A stretch of DNA of 32,000 nt from Aquifex aeolicus VF5 (GTDB lineage: Bacteria; Aquificota; Aquificia; Aquificales; Aquificaceae): contig NC_001880.1 in NCBI RefSeq assembly GCF_000008625.1, positions 7,457 through 39,456 on the forward strand, in the 5' to 3' direction. Of the stretch, positions 613 to 31,555 are shown one piece after another. Position numbers and translations under genes: made by a program. Position 1 is the stretch's first letter; each line of letters opens with the position of its first letter. Under the pieces are notes generated by a model that was not told the origin of the DNA, searched no databases, and saw only the letters and a list, made by a program, of their open reading frames with translations.

Positions 613-834
613 TTATTCGGAAAGTTTCTCCAAAAGATAATCCACAACTTCGGGTTTGAAGTAGTAGAGCCTTTTTCTTCCGCCCAATCTTTTGATGTGC
701 ATGTATTCTTGAGGTATAAAGCCTCTCAAAATCCAGTAGTATATGCCAGACCGTGTTATAGGAATTCCTTTCTTATTTAGTTCCTCTAAAAGTTCGCTCA
801 GGCTTATTAGCTTTTCTTCCGTCATCTGAACCAT
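613..834 (-). CDS. Small excisionase/MerR-like HTH DNA-binding protein, paralog A
   Basis: 73 aa. Shares motifs (RGFIP.E, YYFKPEVVD.L...LS) with the 72 aa ORF 21874..22092. Divergent from a palindrome array and a 318 aa gene, the same layout as the second module. Confidence 0.7.
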   Translation of the reverse strand: MVQMTEEKLISLSELLEELNKKGIPITRSGIYYWILRGFIPQEYMHIKRLGGRKRLYYFKPEVVDYLLEKLSE

Positions 835-887
835 ACTATTAATTTTTCTTCAGTTTTTTAGATTGTCAAAATTTTTGCGATTCAGTG

Positions 888-1265
888 GTTCCGCTAAATT
901 TTGGCGGAACTTACAAATTCCCTTGAAAAATAAAAACTTGACGAAAGCCTTTTCCTGTTCAGTTCTGCTAAAACTTAGCGGAACTATTATCAAGTTCCCC
1001 AAAATCAACGCCTTCATAAGTGGAAGATTTCGGTTCCGCTAAATATATATTGTTGTTGAAATTCCCTTAAAGTTTTGAATTTTTCTACAACAGATTTTCT
1101 TTTAGCGGAACTCACACGTACGCTTATAAGCTCTTTGAAAATCAAAGTCTTGAAATGGGTTATGCGTAGTTCCGCTAACTTTTAGCGGAACTTTAGTCTT
1201 TTACACTTTTCGGAGAAAATTGGAAATCAAGAGTTTGACGTTGTTCCGCTAATATTTGGCGGAAC
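888..1265. repeat. Palindrome (iteron/operator) array, family 1: GTTCCGCTAA-N3-TTAGCGGAAC
   Basis: 23-bp palindromes at 888-910, 962-984, 1169-1191 and 1243-1265. One split palindrome has half-sites at 1033-1043 and 1102-1111, 58 bp apart. Confidence 0.9.
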
Positions 1266-1328
1266 TCTAAATTTTTGATTTACTGAAAATCTGTAATCGG
1301 CTAAATTATTAACGAGAAGGTAATTACC

Positions 1329-2285
1329 GTGAGGGAGGAAGTTGAAAGGAAAATAAAGGAAGTTCTCGGAGTAAAAGAGGAGACTTTAAAGTATGAGGGA
1401 GTTTTCAGACGAAGAAAGAGGAAGGGGGCAAAGGAATACGAATATCTGGAAGCAAAGTTCTATGACATTGAAGAGAAGAAAATTGTAAACGTCCACGTCC
1501 CTGTAAAGAAAGAAAATCTTGTTCTTGAGCTGGACAGGCATTGGAAAGAAAGCAAGAAAAGGGAAAAAGAACTTGAAAAAAGGTTGAAAGAAATAATATC
1601 CGAATACAAAAATCCGGACCTAATAAGAGAAATCCTTGAAAGACTCCTTGAGGAAGGCATTCGGCGAGAAGCAAAAGATTACGCTTATGAAAAATACAAA
1701 AAGGAAGCTCTTGAGCTTTTTGAGAGGTTCAAGCCCTATCTTATCAAGCTAAGAAGGGAAAGACTGAAAAGAATAAACCTTTTGCAAGCACTATACCTTC
1801 TTGCGAATGTAAAGGAAATGTTCCAGGAAAAGGAAGAAGAACTTGAAAAGGTCATGGAAAGAGCGGTAAAAACAATCCTCTTTAGAGACCAAAACCAGAA
1901 ACTTCAGAGTCCTTTGGGAGTCTTGAAAAATGACTTTTTCCTTCCAAAAGAAACTCCTTACGATTTTTTGCTTTCTCGTTTCCTTCAAGCGGAACTCGAA
2001 CCTGTGCTTGAAAAGCTTCTGAAAGCGGAAATAGAAAAAGAAGAGACACAAGAGGCTATGGGAGAAATTGCAGAGTTTCTGACAGAACTTTCTGAAGAAG
2101 CAAAAAGTAGGGTTCTCAAAGTATTTCCATCCTTTTCGCAGTTTTCTAAAGTTTTGTACCGTGAGTGGAAGAAATCCGGACAATCTCTCAAGGATTTTCT
2201 TGTAGATTGGAAAAGCTTTCTCGAGTTCAAAGGAAAAGAAGCTGAAAAGGAAGTTTTGAACGTATTGTCTAAATTGAATTTATAA
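1329..2285 (+). CDS. 318 aa charged, helical protein, paralog A; candidate replication or iteron-associated protein
   Basis: Same length as 22553..23509, with shared blocks LQALYLLANVKE / LQVLYLLANLKE and LKNDFFL...TPYDFLLS.FL. GTG start preceded by GAGAAGG. Function inferred from position next to the iterons only. Confidence 0.75.
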   Translation: MREEVERKIKEVLGVKEETLKYEGVFRRRKRKGAKEYEYLEAKFYDIEEKKIVNVHVPVKKENLVLELDRHWKESKKREKELEKRLKEIISEYKNPDLIREILERLLEEGIRREAKDYAYEKYKKEALELFERFKPYLIKLRRERLKRINLLQALYLLANVKEMFQEKEEELEKVMERAVKTILFRDQNQKLQSPLGVLKNDFFLPKETPYDFLLSRFLQAELEPVLEKLLKAEIEKEETQEAMGEIAEFLTELSEEAKSRVLKVFPSFSQFSKVLYREWKKSGQSLKDFLVDWKSFLEFKGKEAEKEVLNVLSKLNL

Positions 2286-9018: not shown

Positions 9019-9975
9019 TTACTCCCTCTTAAATTTGTTGTTTCTTTTCAGGATAAATTTAAACCTTTTGCTTATGGACACGCGTGAAACTTTGGAACCT
9101 TTATGATGCCACTCTATTATTCCCATTTCTTCCAGTTTATTTAAATGAGCGTAGAAAGTTCTCTTCTTAAGACCTGAGAGATTCAGCAACTCGTCCGTCT
9201 TCATTCCGTACTCTCTGTCCTTCAAATGTTTAAGGATTGGTTCAAACTTGTGTAAAATTTCTTCATACTTTGCTTTCTCATTAATATACCAAGTAATTGC
9301 TCCATTTTTGTTTATGTAATAGTATATTTTTTCAAAAGGATAAGCAAAATTATGCTTTTCTATTGTCAATACCCGAAAGCTTTTCCCTTCTGTGTAGGCC
9401 TGCATAAAGGGAGTTGTTAAAAACTTAATTGTAGATACGCCCTGATACCTGTCCGTTTTATTTTTTCCTGAACTTTTAATCGTGTGATGAATAAACATTA
9501 TGTGACTTTCAGAATTTCTTGCTAACTTTCTTGTTTTTTTAATAAATTCCTTAACTTCTACAGGATCATAAATAGACTTTCCTTCATAAAAGGCAACAAA
9601 ACTATCAACCACAACAAAATCGTAGCGTTTTTGTTCCAGTATCTTTTCAAAACTCCTGTAATCCGAAATGTCGTCCAGATCCATTATTTCCATTTCTGAA
9701 GTGCTTATTCTGTATCTTTTTCTTATTGGTTCTAACTTTTCTAAGATATCTTCCTTATAAAGTTCCAGAGATATATAGGCTACTTTCTTCGGTTCCTTAA
9801 CTTTGAGTAAATTGTGAAATAAGTTCTTACCTGCACCTGCCAGTAGACACAAGTAAAGGCTTATGGTAGTTTTCCCTACACCTGAATCACCGTAAAGTAT
9901 GGAAACGTATCCCTTCCTGAAAAACTCGTCAAAATTTTGCGCACTGTTGCTCCTTTTGTATTCACTTAACCTCAT
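9019..9975 (-). CDS. RecA-superfamily (RepA/KaiC/AAA_25-like) ATPase with C-terminal winged HTH; candidate plasmid replicative helicase or loader
   Basis: Walker [10 protein letters not shown] and Walker [10 protein letters not shown]-terminal [21 protein letters not shown] looks like a wHTH. Confidence 0.65.
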
Positions 9976-10825: not shown

Positions 10826-11344
10826 ATGGATATCAAACTCGACAAAAACGTAGTAAAGATGGTGATGAGCTCAAAAGAAGAAGAGCTAATGCCTTCAATA
10901 GGATGGGAAGGTAAAAAAGAAATACCCGTCTTAATTACCAACGTAGAAACCAAAATTCCCAAGGGACATCCTGTCATATTCAAAATGGTCCCAATTGATG
11001 AAGGTAAAGTAACTGCAGTGTTCATCTTCCTGACAGTAGGAGAACAGCTCTGGACTGTGTTCAATCCTGCGAACACTTACTACAGATTGTTCCTAAAAGC
11101 AATGACCGAAGCAGACAAACTGGCAATTTGCTTTCCGAATAAAAAGGCCATATCAATTAAGACAACAGAAGAAATGAAGAAAGCGGCAAGAATACTTCTC
11201 GACACAATAGAGGAATTTCAGTGGGATTCGGAAGAATTCGCAGAGGCACTGGAAAAAATAGCCGAAAATTATACGCTGGAAGACATAGAAATGATCGCAG
11301 TCCAAGAATGGAAAAAAAGAACAGGACAGGAAAAAGAAAACTGA
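10826..11344 (+). CDS. Hypothetical protein
   Basis: 172 aa ORF. AAAGGAGGT before the ATG, and the same leader element as the previous gene. Confidence 0.6.
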   Translation: MDIKLDKNVVKMVMSSKEEELMPSIGWEGKKEIPVLITNVETKIPKGHPVIFKMVPIDEGKVTAVFIFLTVGEQLWTVFNPANTYYRLFLKAMTEADKLAICFPNKKAISIKTTEEMKKAARILLDTIEEFQWDSEEFAEALEKIAENYTLEDIEMIAVQEWKKRTGQEKEN

Positions 11345-13109: not shown

Positions 13110-13233
13110 TTTATCATTCTCCTAAAGACTGAGAATTCCCAAACTTCATCACCAAAGAAGTTTGATATTTGAAAATCAATAGATTGGTAAATATACCTTT
13201 ATAAACATATTGAAAATCAAAGGCTTAAAGCAA

Positions 13234-16790: not shown

Positions 16791-17339
16791 TCAGCGTTTA
16801 CTTATTCTTATAACGGAAAACAGAGAGGTGAAAATATTTCTCTTTTCACTTACCCCTATAGTTTTTAAAAACTCCTCTTTTAGAATGAGATAACTGTCCT
16901 GTAAAAATCCATTATCAAATTCTTCAAGCGGTGTGAGATAACCCGCATCTTTTATCTGGACTTTATAACAAGGGACAAGTTTCTTTTGATCCTGTTTGTG
17001 ATAATAACGGACCTCTTCAAATTTTTCGGGAGAGGTAAGGTAGAGTTTCTTCCATCCTTTGAGCATAGCCCTTTCAAAGTTCCCGTAATAATTTTCGGGA
17101 ACGGGAATTCCCTCGTTAAGTAGAAAGTCTCTTGAAAAGTAAAGAGGATCTTCTTCTTTTAACTCAATCTTTTCAGGATTAACACATTTTAAAAACTTCA
17201 GAAAGAGAGAATTGTTTGCTTTTCCTAAAAGTTTATTTACGCTCTTTTTTGAAGAAATCTGAACCTCAAAAGGCAAGAAACACGCTCTCCTGAAAATCTG
17301 CCTTTCTCCCGTAAGATCAAAAAGATTACTGGTTAACAT
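16791..17339 (-). CDS. Hypothetical protein, last intact gene of the nuclease/ATPase island
   Basis: ORF 16791..17372. The ATG at 17339 follows AGAGGAG and leaves a 14-nt overlap with the ATPase gene. Confidence 0.5.
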   Translation of the reverse strand: MLTSNLFDLTGERQIFRRACFLPFEVQISSKKSVNKLLGKANNSLFLKFLKCVNPEKIELKEEDPLYFSRDFLLNEGIPVPENYYGNFERAMLKGWKKLYLTSPEKFEEVRYYHKQDQKKLVPCYKVQIKDAGYLTPLEEFDNGFLQDSYLILKEEFLKTIGVSEKRNIFTSLFSVIRISKR

Positions 17340-21873: not shown

Positions 21874-22092
21874 TTAGACGGAGAGCTCCTGAACAAGAAA
21901 ATCTACCACTTCCGGTTTGAAGTAGTAGTAATTAACAAGTCCTCTTCTCTTTATCCTTACCAATTCACCGGGAATGAAGCCTCTCTTTACATAACGGATT
22001 AAAGTTCTATCGCTTATCTCTATACCTCTTTCTTTAAGTTCTCTTAGAACCTGCGTACTCGTAAGATATCCCTGAATTCTTATTGCCGGCAT
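21874..22092 (-). CDS. Small excisionase/MerR-like HTH DNA-binding protein, paralog B
   Basis: 72 aa. RGFIPGELVRIKRRGLVNYYYFKPEVVDFLVQELS parallels 613..834. Confidence 0.7.
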   Translation of the reverse strand: MPAIRIQGYLTSTQVLRELKERGIEISDRTLIRYVKRGFIPGELVRIKRRGLVNYYYFKPEVVDFLVQELSV

Positions 22093-22149: not shown

Positions 22150-22493
22150 GTTCTCCTATATATAGGAGAACTACTTTGAGCTCGCTAAAAATCAAGTCTC
22201 AGACACACCACTTGAACTCCGGAAGTTCTCCTAGCTATAGGAGAACCGCTACTTAACTTATTGATTTTCAAGCACTTTCTGTTTAGTTCTCCTAGAAACA
22301 TTTATATCTTTTTCCATATACAAAAGCTTTTTGTTATTGGAGAAGTAATAAGTTATATAGGAGAACTCTCCTTTCAAGTTTTTGATTTTCAATATAGTTC
22401 TCCTATATATAGGAGAACTTTTGTGATTTTTTCTATTCTGTAATGCCCGATTTTTAGTTTGGTCATAAGTGGTTCTCCTAGAACTAGGAGAAC
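22150..22493. repeat. Palindrome (iteron/operator) array, family 2: GTTCTCCTA-N4-TAGGAGAAC
   Basis: 22-bp palindromes at 22150-22171, 22225-22246, 22397-22418 and 22472-22493. A split palindrome has half-sites at 22286-22295 and 22358-22366. Confidence 0.9.
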
Positions 22494-22552: not shown

Positions 22553-23509
22553 ATGCTTGAAGTTGAAAAAAAGATAAAACAAAAGCTGGGGATAGATGAA
22601 ACAGAGGTCCTGAGCTCCCTAACGAGCTACCGGAAAAAAGGCAAAACCTACTATAAAATTGTAACATACGATTCAAAAACGAAACAATCTAGGAGATACC
22701 ATGTGCCCAGAATGTTCGAAGAGGAGATTTTAGCTCTCTGGAAGCAGCGGCAGAAGTACATTGAAGAAGAAAGGGAACTTGAAAGGGAAGTAAAAAGCCT
22801 CTTAAAAAAATACGGGGATGCAGAAAAGATAAAGGAAATTCTGGAAAAAGTAGCAGGAGAAAGTTTTGATAAAGCTGTTTCCTCTTACGCAATTAAGACT
22901 TACACGAATAAGGCAAAGGAACTCTTTAAGAGTTTTAAAGAAGACCTTATAAAGCTTTACAGGGAGGGAGTTTTAAAAAGGCTTTCAGTTTTGCAGGTCC
23001 TTTACCTTCTTGCAAATTTGAAGGAGATTTCCGAAGATACGGAAAGAGGAAGTTACTTTTTCAAGAAAGGACTGAACACGATAATAAAAGTAGCAAAAAA
23101 CGAACGTATCCCAAATCCTTTCGGAACACTTAAAAACGACTTTTTCCTTTCGGGAAAGCAGACCCCTTATGACTTTCTCCTTTCGAATTTTCTTGAAGAG
23201 CTTATAGGAGAAACTCTAGGAGAACTCCTTGAAAAGGAAATTGAGAAATTAGTAGCGGAAGAAAAAGCAAAAGAAATCGAGGGAAAAGTAAAGAAGTTAA
23301 AGGAAATTGTTTCATGGTTTGAAACCCTTCCCTACGAAATAAAACAGATTGCAAAAGAAGTAATTTCTGACAATGTTCTGGATATTGCAGAAAAGTTCTA
23401 CAAGGATATGAAAGAATGCAATTACTCTCTTGATGAAGCAAAAGCATTTTTAACAAGTTCTCCTAGAGATAACCTGGTGAATTACATGCAATACCTTAAG
23501 TCTATATGA
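22553..23509 (+). CDS. 318 aa charged, helical protein, paralog B; candidate replication or iteron-associated protein
   Basis: Same length and shared motifs with 1329..2285. Confidence 0.75.
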   Translation: MLEVEKKIKQKLGIDETEVLSSLTSYRKKGKTYYKIVTYDSKTKQSRRYHVPRMFEEEILALWKQRQKYIEEERELEREVKSLLKKYGDAEKIKEILEKVAGESFDKAVSSYAIKTYTNKAKELFKSFKEDLIKLYREGVLKRLSVLQVLYLLANLKEISEDTERGSYFFKKGLNTIIKVAKNERIPNPFGTLKNDFFLSGKQTPYDFLLSNFLEELIGETLGELLEKEIEKLVAEEKAKEIEGKVKKLKEIVSWFETLPYEIKQIAKEVISDNVLDIAEKFYKDMKECNYSLDEAKAFLTSSPRDNLVNYMQYLKSI

Positions 23510-23514
23510 AAGTC

Positions 23515-23718
23515 TTACGCATTCTCTGAGAGTATTTCCGTTATAAGATCCTTCAACGTTTTCCCTTCCTTTAATGCCCTCATTTTAAGAGAAAACCACA
23601 CATCATAAGGAAGCTCTATCAGAAGTTTCTTAACCTGTGGTTTTTCTTCCCCTTCTTTTATCTTTGCAGAAGCTATAAATTCCTCGGGTTTTTTTGAAGG
23701 TTTCTTCGGTATAGCCAT
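23515..23718 (-). CDS. Small RHH centromere-binding partition protein (ParG-like)
   Basis: 67 aa directly downstream of parA. KKLLIELPYDVWFSLKMRALKEGKTLKDLITEIL fits an RHH with a basic flexible N-terminus. Confidence 0.6.
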   Translation of the reverse strand: MAIPKKPSKKPEEFIASAKIKEGEEKPQVKKLLIELPYDVWFSLKMRALKEGKTLKDLITEILSENA

Positions 23719-23748
23719 TATGTAACCTCCTTTATTTAAATTACTAAG

Positions 23749-24390
23749 TTAAGCAATATTAATTATATTACTAATTTCATTTATTAAGCTTTCAAGCTCC
23801 TCTATTGCTTTTTTATCGTTCATTTCAAGCACTCCCTTTCCTTCTTTTACAGAGTTTCTGTAAACTACTCTTGAGTGCAATCTTGAATTTAATACTCCTA
23901 CGGAGTACTGCTGTGCTAATTCTCTCAGGGTTTCCTCAGCTTCTTTCACGATGTTAGACTTTATTACTTGATTAAACAGTATATAAGCCGGGATATCTGC
24001 AAAGGTCCTTGCTTCTTGCAGAACCTTCAGGGTATCTTCTGTTGCCCATACATCGTAAACACTTGGGAGAACAGGTATTATCAAAGCTCCGTTTGATGCT
24101 GCAAGAATCGCGCTTCTGAAAACTGCACTATCTCTTCCCCCTACGTCGATAACTACAACATCAAAATTTTCAAAACCCTTAATGTCTTTGTGAATTGTGG
24201 GCTTTGTAATACCTATTGCTTTAATGTCGTCTTTTTCCCTGAGTGCCCTGAAGTTCAAACTACTTTCCTGGATATCCGCATCAATAAGTAGAACACTTTT
24301 TCCTCTGAGAGAATATCCTACGGCTAAATTACACGCAACAGTACTTTTCCCTACTCCTCCCTTCTGATTACCTACCACGATTACTTTCAT
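23749..24390 (-). CDS. parA: ParA/Soj-family partition ATPase (type Ib size)
   Basis: Deviant Walker A MKVIVVGNQKGGVGKST, then VLLIDADIQ; 213 aa. Confidence 0.9.
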   Translation of the reverse strand: MKVIVVGNQKGGVGKSTVACNLAVGYSLRGKSVLLIDADIQESSLNFRALREKDDIKAIGITKPTIHKDIKGFENFDVVVIDVGGRDSAVFRSAILAASNGALIIPVLPSVYDVWATEDTLKVLQEARTFADIPAYILFNQVIKSNIVKEAEETLRELAQQYSVGVLNSRLHSRVVYRNSVKEGKGVLEMNDKKAIEELESLINEISNIINIA

Positions 24391-24907: not shown

Positions 24908-25096
24908 GTTCTCATACTTATTATGTTGTCATTGAATGTGTATAAAGATTTAGGGTTTACATTAGTACCTATATTAATGTATGAGAGCTTTATTAGAAAG
25001 CCTTGAAAACAGGTAAGGTTCTCATACCTATGGGAAAACTCTAAAAAATGTGAAATTCTTGAAAATCAAAATGGTTCTCATACTTATATGAGAATC
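24908..25096. repeat. Palindrome array, family 3: GTTCTCATA-N4-TATGAGAAC (partly degenerate)
   Basis: Best copy 25074-25096 (GTTCTCATACTTATATGAGAATC). Weaker copies at 24908-24930 and 25018-25039. A right half-site TATGAGAGC at 24979-24987. Confidence 0.7.
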
Positions 25097-26435: not shown

Positions 26436-27398
26436 ATGACGTATCAAAACGGTGTTGAAGTTTTACTTGAGGAATTTCTTGATTATCTAACAAAGGAAGA
26501 AACCATATGCTCGCTGGAAATAGAAAAGTTAAAAGTTTCTATAGACGAACTTGAGAAAGAAACTGATGAGCCGAGAGTACTTCAAGGGATAAACTATTTC
26601 AGAACCGCAAAAGAAGTTTACCAACTTTCACGGAAAGCATATGAAACAAAAGAGGAAGTGGTCTCTGAAGCTTTAATACTATGGATTTATGAAAACCTAT
26701 GGAAAGGATTTAATGTTCCCAAGGGATATAGAAAAAGTGATATGGTTATTTTCGGTGCAAAATTTAGTCCTCCACCACCATATGTTGTTCCGAACCTTAT
26801 AAGAACAATAGTAAACTGGCTAAGGAATGAGAAAACAATAGATGTAGTTAAGAAATCTATTATTTTCCACACGCTATTTGAAGTTATACATCCGTTTCCT
26901 GACGGCAACGGAAGAGTGGGAAGAATACTTTTGAATGCAATCCTCGTAGAAAACGGACTCTTAAATGTTGCTTTTAGAAATAGAGAGAAATATATCTCCG
27001 CCTTGAGAGAAGCTGAAGAGGGAGCTATAGTAGTTGTTGAAAAACTATCAAGAGGAAGAAAAATAGATTATTCATCTATTACAGAAACTGTAGAGTATTA
27101 CGGAAACTTAAATGTTTTTGATGAACTAATAAGAACCGAGATGATGCACAGCTTGAAGGTATACTCAAATATAAAGCAAGTTTTCTTAACTCCAGAGGAG
27201 GCAGCAAAACTTTTAGGTTTAAAGAATAAGGATTACGTAAGAGTTCTAATCCACAGAGGAAAACTAAAAGCAGTTAAGGAAGAAGGTAAGTGGAAGATAC
27301 CTCTTTCTGAAGTTGTAAAGAACTTTGAACACAAACTGAAAGGAGAAGAATTCAAACTTGCCAATAATTTGTTCAAAGGTAAACTTAGTCCTTCTTAA
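26436..27398 (+). CDS. Fic-domain protein with C-terminal excisionase-type HTH
   Basis: Fic motif HPFPDGNGRVGR. C-terminal LTPEEAAKLLGLKNKDYVRVLIHRGKLKAVKEEGKWKIPLSEVV resembles HTH_17/excisionase domains. Confidence 0.85.
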   Translation: MTYQNGVEVLLEEFLDYLTKEETICSLEIEKLKVSIDELEKETDEPRVLQGINYFRTAKEVYQLSRKAYETKEEVVSEALILWIYENLWKGFNVPKGYRKSDMVIFGAKFSPPPPYVVPNLIRTIVNWLRNEKTIDVVKKSIIFHTLFEVIHPFPDGNGRVGRILLNAILVENGLLNVAFRNREKYISALREAEEGAIVVVEKLSRGRKIDYSSITETVEYYGNLNVFDELIRTEMMHSLKVYSNIKQVFLTPEEAAKLLGLKNKDYVRVLIHRGKLKAVKEEGKWKIPLSEVVKNFEHKLKGEEFKLANNLFKGKLSPS

Positions 27399-27438: not shown

Positions 27439-27490
27439 GTCCTATATATAGGACAACTTTTCTACAGAGTTCTCATATCGGTATGAGAAC
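27439..27490. repeat. Two palindromes: GTCCTATATATAGGAC and a perfect family-3 site GTTCTCATATCGGTATGAGAAC
   Basis: 27439-27454 and 27469-27490, read directly from the sequence. Confidence 0.85.
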
Positions 27491-27781
27491 TTTTGCGTTG
27501 TGAACCATGGTTTACAACCTCAGGCAAGTCTTAACTGAGCTAAATTTAACCAAACTAAATTAATATACTTATGGAATATATACACGAAAGTATAAGAGAA
27601 TTCTGTTGTAAAAAGGGAGTGGGGTGTTCTAATTCTATCATTAATTCTGTCTCTTCTTGCAACATATGTGTAAACATTTTTCAAGGTAAGAAAGAAGAAG
27701 GTTTAACTTGAATTCCAAAAGCTCTTCAACTTTTTATTTTGCATCAGACATAGGAAAAAATCCTCCAAAACTCGGACCAAG

Positions 27782-28571: not shown

Positions 28572-28686
28572 CATGGTAATTATTGCAAATATGGTATTTA
28601 TGGTCATTATGGTAAATACAAATTATGGTAAATATGGTAATTATGGTAAGTATGGTTATTATGGCAATAAAGGTAAACATGGTAAA
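28572..28686. repeat. Tandem 9-bp repeats TATGGTAAN, 5 + 7 units in two blocks
   Basis: Blocks 28572-28616 and 28624-28686, separated by a 7-nt phase break. They end 10 nt before the ATG of the ParM-like remnant. Confidence 0.85.
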
Positions 28687-28695
28687 AGGTATAAG

Positions 28696-29040
28696 ATGGT
28701 GTTGGGCTGGACCTTGGATTTGAACACACAAATGTAGTTGCAAATGGGAGGAAGTTTAAGTTTCCAAGCTGGATAACTTATCTTTCGAAAAGTACAATTT
28801 CGGAAGCAGAAGAGGTAAGGGTAGGCTCGGAGAGTATGGTTGTGGGGGAAGACGCAAAGTATGAACCGAGAAAGATAGAAATCAAAGGTGTCAACGCTGA
28901 TAAAGTATTCTCCCTACTTCCTCGCTTATATGGTAAAACTACTCGGCGAAGAACCAAAAGTTGTGATAAGCGATCTTCCTCTAGTGCTTAAGGACAAAAA
29001 GGAACAATACAAAGAAGTCCTCAAAAGTGTCCTCAGATGA
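28696..29040 (+). pseudogene. Actin-like (ParM/Alp-type) segregation ATPase remnant, frameshifted and truncated
   Basis: One frame gives VGLDLGFEHTNVVANGRKFKFPS (phosphate-1 DxG motif plus FPS). It is out of frame with ATG 28696 by 1 nt. A further shift occurs near 28905. It ends at 29040 after about 115 codons. Confidence 0.5.
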
Positions 29041-29060
29041 CATGTTCGAGGGATTTTTCT

Positions 29061-29274
29061 GAAGTAAGGTTTTTTGAATTTACGAAAGTAAGGCTAAAGA
29101 GGGAAGTCAAGTTGGTGAATTTCAAGGAAGTAAGGTTGAAGACAGGGAAGTAAGGTTCGTGAATTTGCAGGAAGTAAGGTTAAAGAGGGAAGTAGGGAAG
29201 TTTCGTATTGTGTGAATTCGCAGGAAGTAAGGGACAAGCGGGAAGTCTTGTGAATTTTTACCTTTTTGTGAATT
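29061..29274 (+). repeat. Iteron array of interleaved GGAAGTAAGG and GTGAATT boxes
   Basis: GAAGTAAGG-type boxes at about 29061, 29084, 29126, 29145, 29170 and 29223, with variants at 29101, 29188 and 29240. GTGAATT-type boxes at 29115, 29159, 29212, 29250 and 29268 (TGAATT only at 29075). All are in one orientation. Confidence 0.8.
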
Positions 29275-29574
29275 ACCACTTTGAAGTAGGGTTTACAGGA
29301 AAACGTAGAGTTTGCTAAAATCAGGAATATTCTGTATGCGTAAGTCTTATCCCGAAGGCAAATTTAAAAATCACGAAGTATTTAATCAATTTTTCTTCCT
29401 TTTCAGGTATATCAAATATCCTGCAAGTCCTAGATTAAATAGGAATACTAGCGTAGTTGCAATAAAGAATTTGTCAAATTCAAACATTTACTCACCTTGA
29501 AACTAGAGGCCGAAATAGTAATAGATAGTAATTTTATCCCAAATAAAGTAAAAAGTATATACTAATGGACAAAT

Positions 29575-31321: not shown

Positions 31322-31555
31322 TTGCTTTAAGCCTTTGATTTTCAATATGTTTATAAAGGTATATTTACCAATCTATTGATTTTCAAATATCAAACTTCTT
31401 TGTCCAAGAAGTTTGGAAAAATAAATCAAAAGGAGGAGGTAGAAAAATGCTAAGAAAACTCTTCTTTCTCCTCATTTTCCTGAGTGCAATCACACTTGCA
31501 GTTCCAGAAGAAGTTTGAGGTTTGATAATCAATATGTTTATAAACTTCTGGCAGG

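Follow-up and report, generated by a model that had tools for sequence, protein, structure and literature searches.

We describe here a two-gene module of the Aquifex aeolicus plasmid ece1 that is possibly an origin of replication together with its initiator or adaptor protein. The DNA analysed, called the window below, is a 32 kb stretch of ece1 with a GC content of 36%. Module 1 (window positions 613-2285) consists of a gene for a 73-amino-acid (aa) winged-helix protein, of a gene for a 318-aa protein, 100% identical to A. aeolicus aq_aa11 (open reading frame, or ORF, at 1329-2285), and of a ~490-bp array stretch of palindromic sites that separates these divergent genes. The array is mirror-symmetric, its arm spacings being equal or differing by multiples of about 10.5 bp, and, to judge from co-variation and shuffling among relatives, the small gene and the palindromes behave as a single specificity cassette together with roughly the first 57 codons of the large gene. 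By analogy with known origins we tentatively favour, at a little under an even chance, the view that module 1 is an origin/initiator-type complex. The wider proposal is put forward with somewhat more reserve: such modules may form an unrecognised class of bacterial plasmid replicons of hyperthermophiles, defined by mirror-symmetric palindromes, a split site bracketing an unwinding region, a winged helix plus an orphan-fold initiator or adaptor, and cassette-exchanged specificity.

The ORFs and the array of module 1 were mapped from the window sequence, and positions are given in window coordinates. An earlier interpretation of the same DNA (the sequence-only reading) had placed four 23-bp palindromes and one split central site between the two genes, and this layout was recovered. 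The palindromes (GTTCCGCTAA-N3-TTAGCGGAAC, with one mismatch in 3 of the 8 half-sites) start at 888, 962, 1169 and 1243, and the two halves of the central site, at 1033-1042 (+) and 1102-1111 (-), face each other across 58-59 nt; together the five phased sites span 380 bp. When up to one mismatch was allowed, the half-site was matched 12 times in the window against 1.5 expected, a number reached by none of 100 shuffles, and GTTC-N15-GAAC was found 5 times against 0.46 expected. The small inner repeat previously noticed in the spacer, TGTTGT (1051-1056) and ACAACA (1087-1092), is real and extends to 11 nt with one mismatch. The features of module 1 are as follows.

613-834, minus strand: 73-aa winged-helix gene (ORF list, AlphaFold topology).
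842-869, minus strand: sigma-70-like promoter of the small gene, TTGACA-16-AAAAAT, outside the array (promoter scan).
888-910, unstranded: palindrome 1, GTTCCGCTAA-ATT-TTGGCGGAAC (motif match; invariant in the phylogenetic footprint).
962-984, unstranded: palindrome 2 (motif match, phylogenetic footprint).
1033-1042, plus strand: left central half-site, pointing inward (motif match; position kept in all loci).
1043-1101, unstranded: central spacer, rich in AT (GC 0.21), where the DNA may unwind or bend (composition).
1051-1061, plus strand: left arm of the inner inverted repeat, TGTTGTTGAAA (sequence; subfamily-1 comparison).
1082-1092, minus strand: right arm of the inner inverted repeat, TTTCTACAACA (sequence; subfamily-1 comparison).
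1102-1111, minus strand: right central half-site, pointing inward (motif match).
1135-1145, plus strand: inter-site motif TTGAAAATCAA (common to 11 of 13 arrays).
1169-1191, unstranded: palindrome 3 (motif match, phylogenetic footprint).
1220-1230, plus strand: inter-site motif TTGGAAATCAA, one mismatch (motif scan).
1243-1265, unstranded: palindrome 4, ending ~63 bp before the start codon (motif match, footprint).
1329-1499, plus strand: codons 1-57 of aq_aa11, N-terminal specificity domain (AlphaFold model, identity comparison).
1329-2285, plus strand: aq_aa11, 318-aa orphan protein with a GTG start, putative effector of the module (ORF list).

The comparison set comprised about 17 loci, i.e. 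the ece1 modules and those relatives whose flanking DNA was fetched. For every fetched homologue the same succession of palindrome, palindrome, half-site, spacer, half-site, palindrome and palindrome was found upstream, at nearly constant positions relative to the start codon (about -435, -360 and -288 on one side of the spacer, -218, -160 and -86 on the other). Since the layout precedes the homologous gene in all these relatives, chance or decay is ruled out as its source. Four arrays share the CCGCTAA specificity: in these the palindromes do not vary, whereas the DNA between them has changed in sequence and retained only its length. This footprint, added to the presence of the layout in about 17 loci, indicates that the split site is a selected feature, as the sequence-only reading had argued from the recurrence of the 2 + split + 2 plan in a second module of the window. 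That recurrence was confirmed, with half-sites of another sequence. A third intact module and a decayed fourth array are also carried by ece1.

21874-22092, minus strand: winged-helix gene of module 2, a 72-aa homologue (ORF list, family comparison).
22150-22493, unstranded: array of module 2, with GTTCTCCTA half-sites (motif scans).
22150-22171, 22225-22246, 22397-22418 and 22472-22493, unstranded: palindromes of module 2 (motif match).
22286-22294 and 22358-22366: split halves of module 2 (motif match).
22261 and 22382: TTGAAAATCAA motifs of module 2 (motif scan).
22553-23509, plus strand: large protein of module 2, a 318-aa paralogue of subfamily 2 (ORF list, protein comparison).
24908-25095, unstranded: decayed fourth ece1 array, of GTTCTCATA type (motif scan).
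L003 360-1976: third intact ece1 module, aq_aa07 with GTTCTCCCTA palindromes in the 2 + split + 2 order, ~3.4-4.0 kb upstream of window position 1.

The decayed array retains a half-site, a 62-bp spacer, a second half-site, a degenerate palindrome, TTGAAAATCAA and a good palindrome, in that order; no large gene follows and a PIN gene stands in its place. Across the loci at least 10 half-site forms were counted (GTTCCGCTA, TTTCCGCAA, GTTCTCCTA, GTTCTCCCT, GTTCTCATA, GTTCACCAK, GTTCTCTAC, TTTCTCCCA, TTTCTACCA, GTTCTACCC and GTTGTAAAG). An A. pyrophilus contig and a 17.9-kb contig from a metagenome-assembled genome (MAG) carry two modules each, and modules that share one plasmid always differ in their half-sites. 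The cassette is found only in Aquificaceae and hot-spring sequences in this survey: the large protein has 28 close relatives among 5.8 billion clusters and only 34 representatives among 1.84 billion proteins, with A. aeolicus, A. pyrophilus and Aquificaceae MAGs as the named sources and metagenome contigs as the rest, and the 63 members of the small-protein family are, whenever a source name is given, from Aquificaceae or Aquifex. Neither DNA nor protein searches of PLSDB gave a match, hence no annotated relative there, and none was obtained when viral contigs were searched with both protein families.

Sites of the same kind were also seen away from complete arrays. Beyond the module 2 array, single exact copies of the GTTCTCCTA half-site stand at 11037, 19991, 23217 and 23457, two of the four within the cognate large gene, which brings the total to 14 against 0.33 expected. 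Stray single palindromes of the array class are present at 27441-27518 and 17079-17102 (GTCCTATATATAGGAC, GTTCTCATATCGGTATGAGAAC, GTTGTGAACCATGGTTTACAAC and GTTCCCGTAATAATTTTCGGGAAC), and similar singletons or relic arrays at L001 9248, L002 7725/7927, L003 271, L005 1386 and L006 601/883. All of a module is also present on the contig JALWJP010000148.1 (L005), assigned to a 'Nanobdellati archaeon' MAG, probably through wrong binning of a piece of an Aquificaceae plasmid. A protein that joins a Fic domain to a C-terminal HTH_17 domain is encoded at 26436-27398 of the window and at L012 2142-3095 and L013 2763-3299, and in two metagenome contigs a Fic gene lies directly 3' of the large gene of a module. 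Module contigs of ~3.3 kb were considered as possible small plasmids in complete form, a finding that would have proved the replicon function; this was rejected, because genes run off their ends and terminal overlaps are absent, so that they are fragments.

Geometry and AT content were measured on 14 arrays. The gap that splits the central site, taken as the centre-to-centre distance of virtual sites, is 56-63 bp in all of them. The distance from palindrome 1 to palindrome 2 equals that from palindrome 3 to palindrome 4 within 2 bp in 10 arrays, and the inner distances (palindrome 2 to the left half, right half to palindrome 3) are equal within 3 bp in 7; the arm distance itself varies by locus over 55-75 bp (55/56, 66/66, 68/68, 74/74 and 75/75). 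The remaining asymmetries, of ~8-10, 19-23 or 31 bp, are near multiples of 10.5 (Rayleigh R 0.64, period 10.25-10.5). Outside the sites the two arms resemble each other only modestly in sequence (mean z 1.3), and in aa11 not at all; gene conversion alone, or shared ancestry of the arms alone, therefore fails to explain the equal spacings, and the spacing itself appears to be maintained. The central spacer is the segment lowest in GC in 10 of the 14 arrays, with a mean of 0.24 versus 0.30-0.32 elsewhere (Wilcoxon p 0.0004-0.007). A hairpin or cruciform in the spacer was examined as well and is weakly supported: the mean z-score was -1.0, and values below -2 were given only by aa11 (-2.9 for its spacer DNA hairpin) and P0004.

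Other elements recur between the sites. The 11-nt motif TTGAAAATCAA is present in 11 of the 13 arrays scored for it, regardless of half-site specificity; it is plasmid-wide rather than confined to arrays, being enriched elsewhere on ece1 as well (16 matches versus 3.2 expected). N4-TT is enriched after it, giving AATCAA-N4-TT, a sequence similar to the IHF consensus, which we regard as a lead. Paired exact copies of TTGAAAATCAA 41 bp apart were observed as inverted copies at 13169-13220 and 31335-31386, and also in A. pyrophilus (L001 6185-6236). Within the spacers, subfamily 1 has an inner inverted repeat, GATGTTGAAA ... TTTCAACATC, in 7 of 10 cases, of which the repeat at 1051-1092 is the aa11 version; in subfamily 2 its place is taken by TTCTTGTTTTTA at a fixed position.

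The 73-aa protein, previously described as being of helix-turn-helix (HTH) type, is indeed predicted to be a winged helix: its AlphaFold model (predicted local distance difference test, pLDDT, 87) has a beta-H-H-beta-beta-H topology. Matches to Pfam HTH_17 (PF12728) are weak (14.5-14.8 bits for a cut-off of 27, E 0.03-0.04), and two of its homologues bear a precomputed PF12728 mark. Its fold neighbours (PadR, TubR, Fur) are not significant; TubR chains are among the top Foldseek matches, only at E 0.05-0.25 and TM 0.38-0.44. The recognition helix is the same within a class of sites and different between classes, i.e. SRSGIYYWIL for CCGCTA, SRVTLYFWIK for TCCCT and SDRTLIRYVK for TCCTA, while the wing, YYFKPEVVDYL, is conserved, as is the outer GTTC of the sites. 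On this correspondence between helix and site, the winged helix would be the parsimonious reader of the palindromes. Two loci encode double winged-helix forms (L011 1542-1994 and L013 114-524), one a tandem fusion and the other with a PadR-like N-domain added. At L011 the centre of the palindrome is 3 bp wider, and at L013 the full palindromes are consistently asymmetric (AAAGG / AAATG), with both central half-sites of the AAAGG type.

The co-variation of site sequence with the protein recognition elements also bears on the idea that the palindromes are a set of structured RNA or terminator hairpins instead of protein-binding DNA. Such stems are self-complementary by definition, and two of the palindromes score terminator-like; we nevertheless consider this extremely unlikely, as five identical stems in one transcript would mispair, the palindromes of other modules are not followed by T-runs (for which reason their role as terminators was rejected), and Rfam gave no match, nor did a tRNA scan.

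The sequence-only reading had left the array as an origin or an operator. Promoter-like sites were placed by our scan only outside the array, on both sides of it, and no palindromic site overlaps a core promoter. The promoter block of the small gene is conserved among the four CCGCTAA-specificity arrays, and a TTGTAA-N-TATATT-type block is conserved between palindrome 4 and the start codon in relatives. A promoter within the central spacer was rejected on the basis of the scan and because its TTGAAA boxes, which belong to the inner repeat, would point towards one another. The small gene is usually divergent from the large one, and is co-directional in the aa07 and P0019 modules. The simple operator is thus unlikely, the array being too large, too symmetric and too regularly phased, with no site over a core promoter and a small gene that occurs in either orientation. 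A more elaborate form of the idea is a private regulatory or addiction-type circuit, in which the winged helix would control a 318-aa effector or toxin-like gene through the array, orthogonal copies accumulating as toxin-antitoxin (TA) modules do. Several orthogonal copies and relics per plasmid would agree with it, as would the richness of ece1 in TA genes (PIN, ParE, AbiEii, Fic), the single palindromes of the array class near other genes, and the location of palindromes 1 and 4 at ~55-63 bp upstream of the predicted transcription starts, typical of activators. Five phased sites over 380 bp with a conserved AT-rich centre nonetheless exceed what an operator needs, none overlaps the core promoter, and the small gene, when co-directional, can lie upstream at a distance from all the sites. 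In addition, the 72-aa protein has no extra domain to neutralise a toxin, PADLOC gave nothing significant, and the N-domain of the large protein is part of the specificity cassette, so that the product would act at the array and not elsewhere. We give such a circuit a low probability.

This last point stems from the large protein. Homology searches and structure prediction were carried out for aq_aa11, and yielded a confident model (pLDDT 89) without relatives: an N-terminal helix and three long strands (residues 1-56, strands at 20-56), a long helical hairpin and a helical C-terminal part. Nothing significant was obtained in Pfam, PHROGs, NCBIfam, PADLOC, the PDB sequence search or Foldseek against the PDB and viral libraries (best PDB match, E 0.5). 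The absence, for both proteins, of any Rep family match in these searches upholds the earlier remark that neither resembles a classical Rep, and a confident fold without relatives makes the large protein a new family for plasmid biology. Its most conserved stretch is NPFGxLKNDFFL...TPYDFLLSxFL. Over 28 sequences the helical body has invariant Tyr, Lys, Asp and Glu residues and no invariant Arg or His.

The two parts of the protein evolve separately. The N-terminal domain is basic (mean net charge +5 over about 53 residues) and the body near neutral, and identity in the one does not correlate with identity in the other (r = 0.21): some pairs have 82-93% identity in the body and 21-31% in the N-terminus (e.g. 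P0020/P0023, 93% and 30%), and other pairs show the converse. The recombinant P0018 joins an aa11-like N-terminus to a subfamily-2 body; it has CCGC-type palindromes, as aa11 does, but the subfamily-2 spacer motif. It is this co-variation and shuffling that ties the start of the large gene (~57 codons) to the small gene and the palindromes in one cassette, and the central spacer appears to go with the body of the large protein. Since the N-terminal domain is part of the specificity unit, its own array must be where the large protein acts, which is, by analogy, the logic of initiators, centromere proteins, transposases and integrases.

The last of these would correspond to an attP-like recombination or synapsis site, at which the winged helix acting like an excisionase, bends of the IHF kind and a large protein whose beta N-domain is of the arm-binding type would form an intasome-like complex. 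Some traits point that way: the weak HTH_17 match of the small protein, the enrichment of AATCAA-N4-TT after the common motif (similar to IHF sites), the N-domain of three beta strands and, behind it, a helical body in which Tyr, Lys, Asp and Glu residues are invariant, and a tyrosine integrase gene ~0.8 kb downstream of the aa07 module. We hold it very unlikely all the same, because no recombinase fold or family was detected, invariant Arg or His residues are lacking, the central half-sites are 56-63 bp apart versus the 6-8 bp of a recombination core, and no att-like junctions were seen.

Centromere proteins call for a look at the partition genes of the plasmid. A ParA gene and a 67-aa, weakly ribbon-helix-helix (RHH)-like gene lie at 23518-24390, convergent with the large gene of module 2, and the same pair of ParA and small, weakly RHH-like downstream gene is present on the A. 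pyrophilus and MAG contigs. No centromere was found for this ParA, the TTAGTTAACTAA-like motifs upstream being not significantly enriched; with a conserved ParA/RHH pair, partition nevertheless seems to be provided for. At 28573-28988, a 9-bp direct repeat, ATGGTAAnT (12.8 copies), stands directly upstream of a truncated actin-like ORF (ALP_N, E 4.8e-5), and the two together look like the remains of a type II (ParM-type) partition locus, centromere included. Module 1 could itself be a centromere-like segregation or plasmid-pairing site, the winged helix being a ParR/TubR/StbA-like adaptor that coats the array to give a higher-order complex and the coiled-coil 318-aa protein a tether or scaffold, not a motor, comparable to KfrA or pSK1 Par. 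Phased sites for a small DNA-binding protein that is encoded alongside, the presence of TubR (E 0.05-0.1, not significant) among the best fold neighbours, the long helical hairpins of the large protein, and the different specificities on one plasmid, which fit incompatibility avoidance, speak for this, and a split site bridged across a bend resembles P1 parS. The module has no NTPase partner, however; the conserved ParA/RHH pair is already there, in addition to the relic ParM locus and its 9-bp repeats; three centromeres on one 39-kb plasmid would be odd, and an AT-rich centre would be unneeded. On balance a centromere function is improbable, no more and no less so in our eyes than the regulatory circuit.

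The origin is ranked above these alternatives because ParA covers partition, the module is without NTPase and recombinase features are absent, and it is ranked first because an AT-rich centre bracketed by inward half-sites and an exchangeable unit made of N-domain and sites match the logic of lambda ori/O and of viral origins. Mirror symmetry, the AT-rich centre, the N-domain within the specificity cassette and the failure to find a canonical Rep family on the related plasmid contigs all support an origin-like reading; besides ParA, the modules are the main conserved backbone of these plasmids. Several observations weigh against it. No signature of an NTPase, primase, nuclease or winged-helix Rep was seen in the large protein by Pfam, in its model or by Foldseek; the exact DnaA box, TTATCCACA, is absent from the window and none of its one-mismatch matches falls in an array; and the sites are 22-25 bp palindromes in mirror layout, not direct iterons. 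Two to three intact modules plus relics per plasmid are unusual for replicons and equally fit addiction or regulatory modules. Other candidates for replication exist on ece1: at 9019-9975 a 318-aa AAA_25 (RecA/DnaB-like) ATPase with a C-terminal winged helix is helicase- or initiator-like (the related contigs, in the part sampled, do not encode it), and iteron-like direct repeats, GGAAGTAAGGTT, spaced by 18-24 bp at 29050-29290, offer an alternative origin (2.8 copies of a 44-bp super-period; the neighbour is an insertion sequence transposase and not a Rep-like gene). Finally, as to GC skew, suggested earlier as a check of origin use, the cumulative skew and gene orientation switch near module 2, not at module 1, and little weight is given to this since the skew follows the coding strand.

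What is shown is the layout of the module, with its conservation, its co-variation, the shuffling of domains and the AT-rich centre; the binding partners and the replication function we infer, and we picture the action of the module as follows. The cassette would build a two-fold symmetric nucleoprotein complex. Dimers of the 73-aa winged helix would occupy the four full palindromes, the variable recognition helix reading the variable inner bases and the conserved wing the conserved outer GTTC, and a factor shared by all modules would bind or bend the TTGAAAATCAA elements. The inward-facing central half-sites would place the complex on both sides of the ~60-bp AT-rich spacer. The basic, swappable N-terminal beta-domain would bring the 318-aa protein to its own array, either by direct contact with the (central) half-sites or by docking on the cognate winged-helix protein, and the conserved helical body would then act on the central spacer or recruit a common partner. 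The spacer may be the site of opening and helicase loading, as in the lambda O-some or a viral dyad-symmetry origin. Exchange of the specificity unit as one contiguous cassette would allow many orthogonal replicons to coexist on a single plasmid.

Should the modules be origins, fragment 613-2285 (1.7 kb) would serve directly as a candidate minimal replicon, and the at least 10 natural specificities would supply a set of mutually compatible versions. To our knowledge no plasmid replicon has been defined in the Aquificales, none having turned up in the literature searched, and we know of no replicating vector for this deep-branching hyperthermophilic phylum; the array and aq_aa07/aq_aa11 are likewise without description in what was searched. 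Whatever their function, the modules let protein-DNA specificity be studied as a natural experiment: a single scaffold occurs with many variants of the half-site, each present ten times per array and paired with its own recognition helix and with a second, shuffled basic domain. A split central site, in helical phase and at a constant gap, suggests an assembly mechanism around the AT-rich segment.

How do the modules compare with known systems? A close parallel is lambda ori, where four dyad-symmetric O sites go with an AT-rich region and the N-terminal domain of O carries the ori specificity; in lambdoid hybrids this domain recombines together with the sites, and the C-terminal part contacts the common replication machinery. 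In ece1-type modules, too, N-terminal domain and palindromes travel together as an exchangeable specificity unit. The differences are that lambda ori lies inside the O gene, is not mirror-symmetric and has no separate small winged-helix protein, that the AT-rich region of module 1 is central and bracketed by half-sites, and that aq_aa11 shows no sequence or fold relationship to O, with no Phage_rep_O or O-like match in Pfam or PHROGs. In herpes simplex virus oriS (Box I/II) and the dyad symmetry element of Epstein-Barr virus oriP, inverted initiator sites bracket an AT spacer of critical length, or paired palindromic sites are arranged symmetrically; these belong to viruses of eukaryotes, whose proteins are unrelated and whose spacers are far shorter, and the likeness is one of analogy. 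With the iteron-carrying theta plasmids (Rep_3/RepA; pPS10, F, R6K), the modules share a rep-like gene beside a site array, an AT-rich region adjoining the sites and orthogonal co-resident specificities; they differ by mirror palindromes in place of directly repeated 17-22 bp iterons, by the lack of a WH1-WH2 winged-helix Rep and of a DnaA box, and by the involvement of two proteins.

Among partition sites, R1 parC/ParR, pBtoxis tubC/TubR and P1 parS (with its IHF-bridged arms) also combine a small site-specific binder, two repeat blocks around a centre and helical phasing. The type II and III systems (ParM, TubZ) differ in that the module has two genes only and no match to an actin-like or tubulin-like NTPase family; moreover, and unlike in the ParR and TubR systems, its promoters are outside the array and not central, its small gene can be co-directional, and the plasmid has a separate ParA system. 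The attP intasome differs from the modules, which have no Phage_integrase match, no tyrosine or serine recombinase domain and no 6-8 bp core overlap, and so do type II TA loci, since the module genes are ~490 bp apart, usually divergent and not bicistronic, and the small protein is a single winged-helix domain. To conclude, a plasmid cis-array with its cognate binding proteins is a known kind of system; the architecture of this one, both of its protein families and the exchange of specificity by cassette appear to be new.

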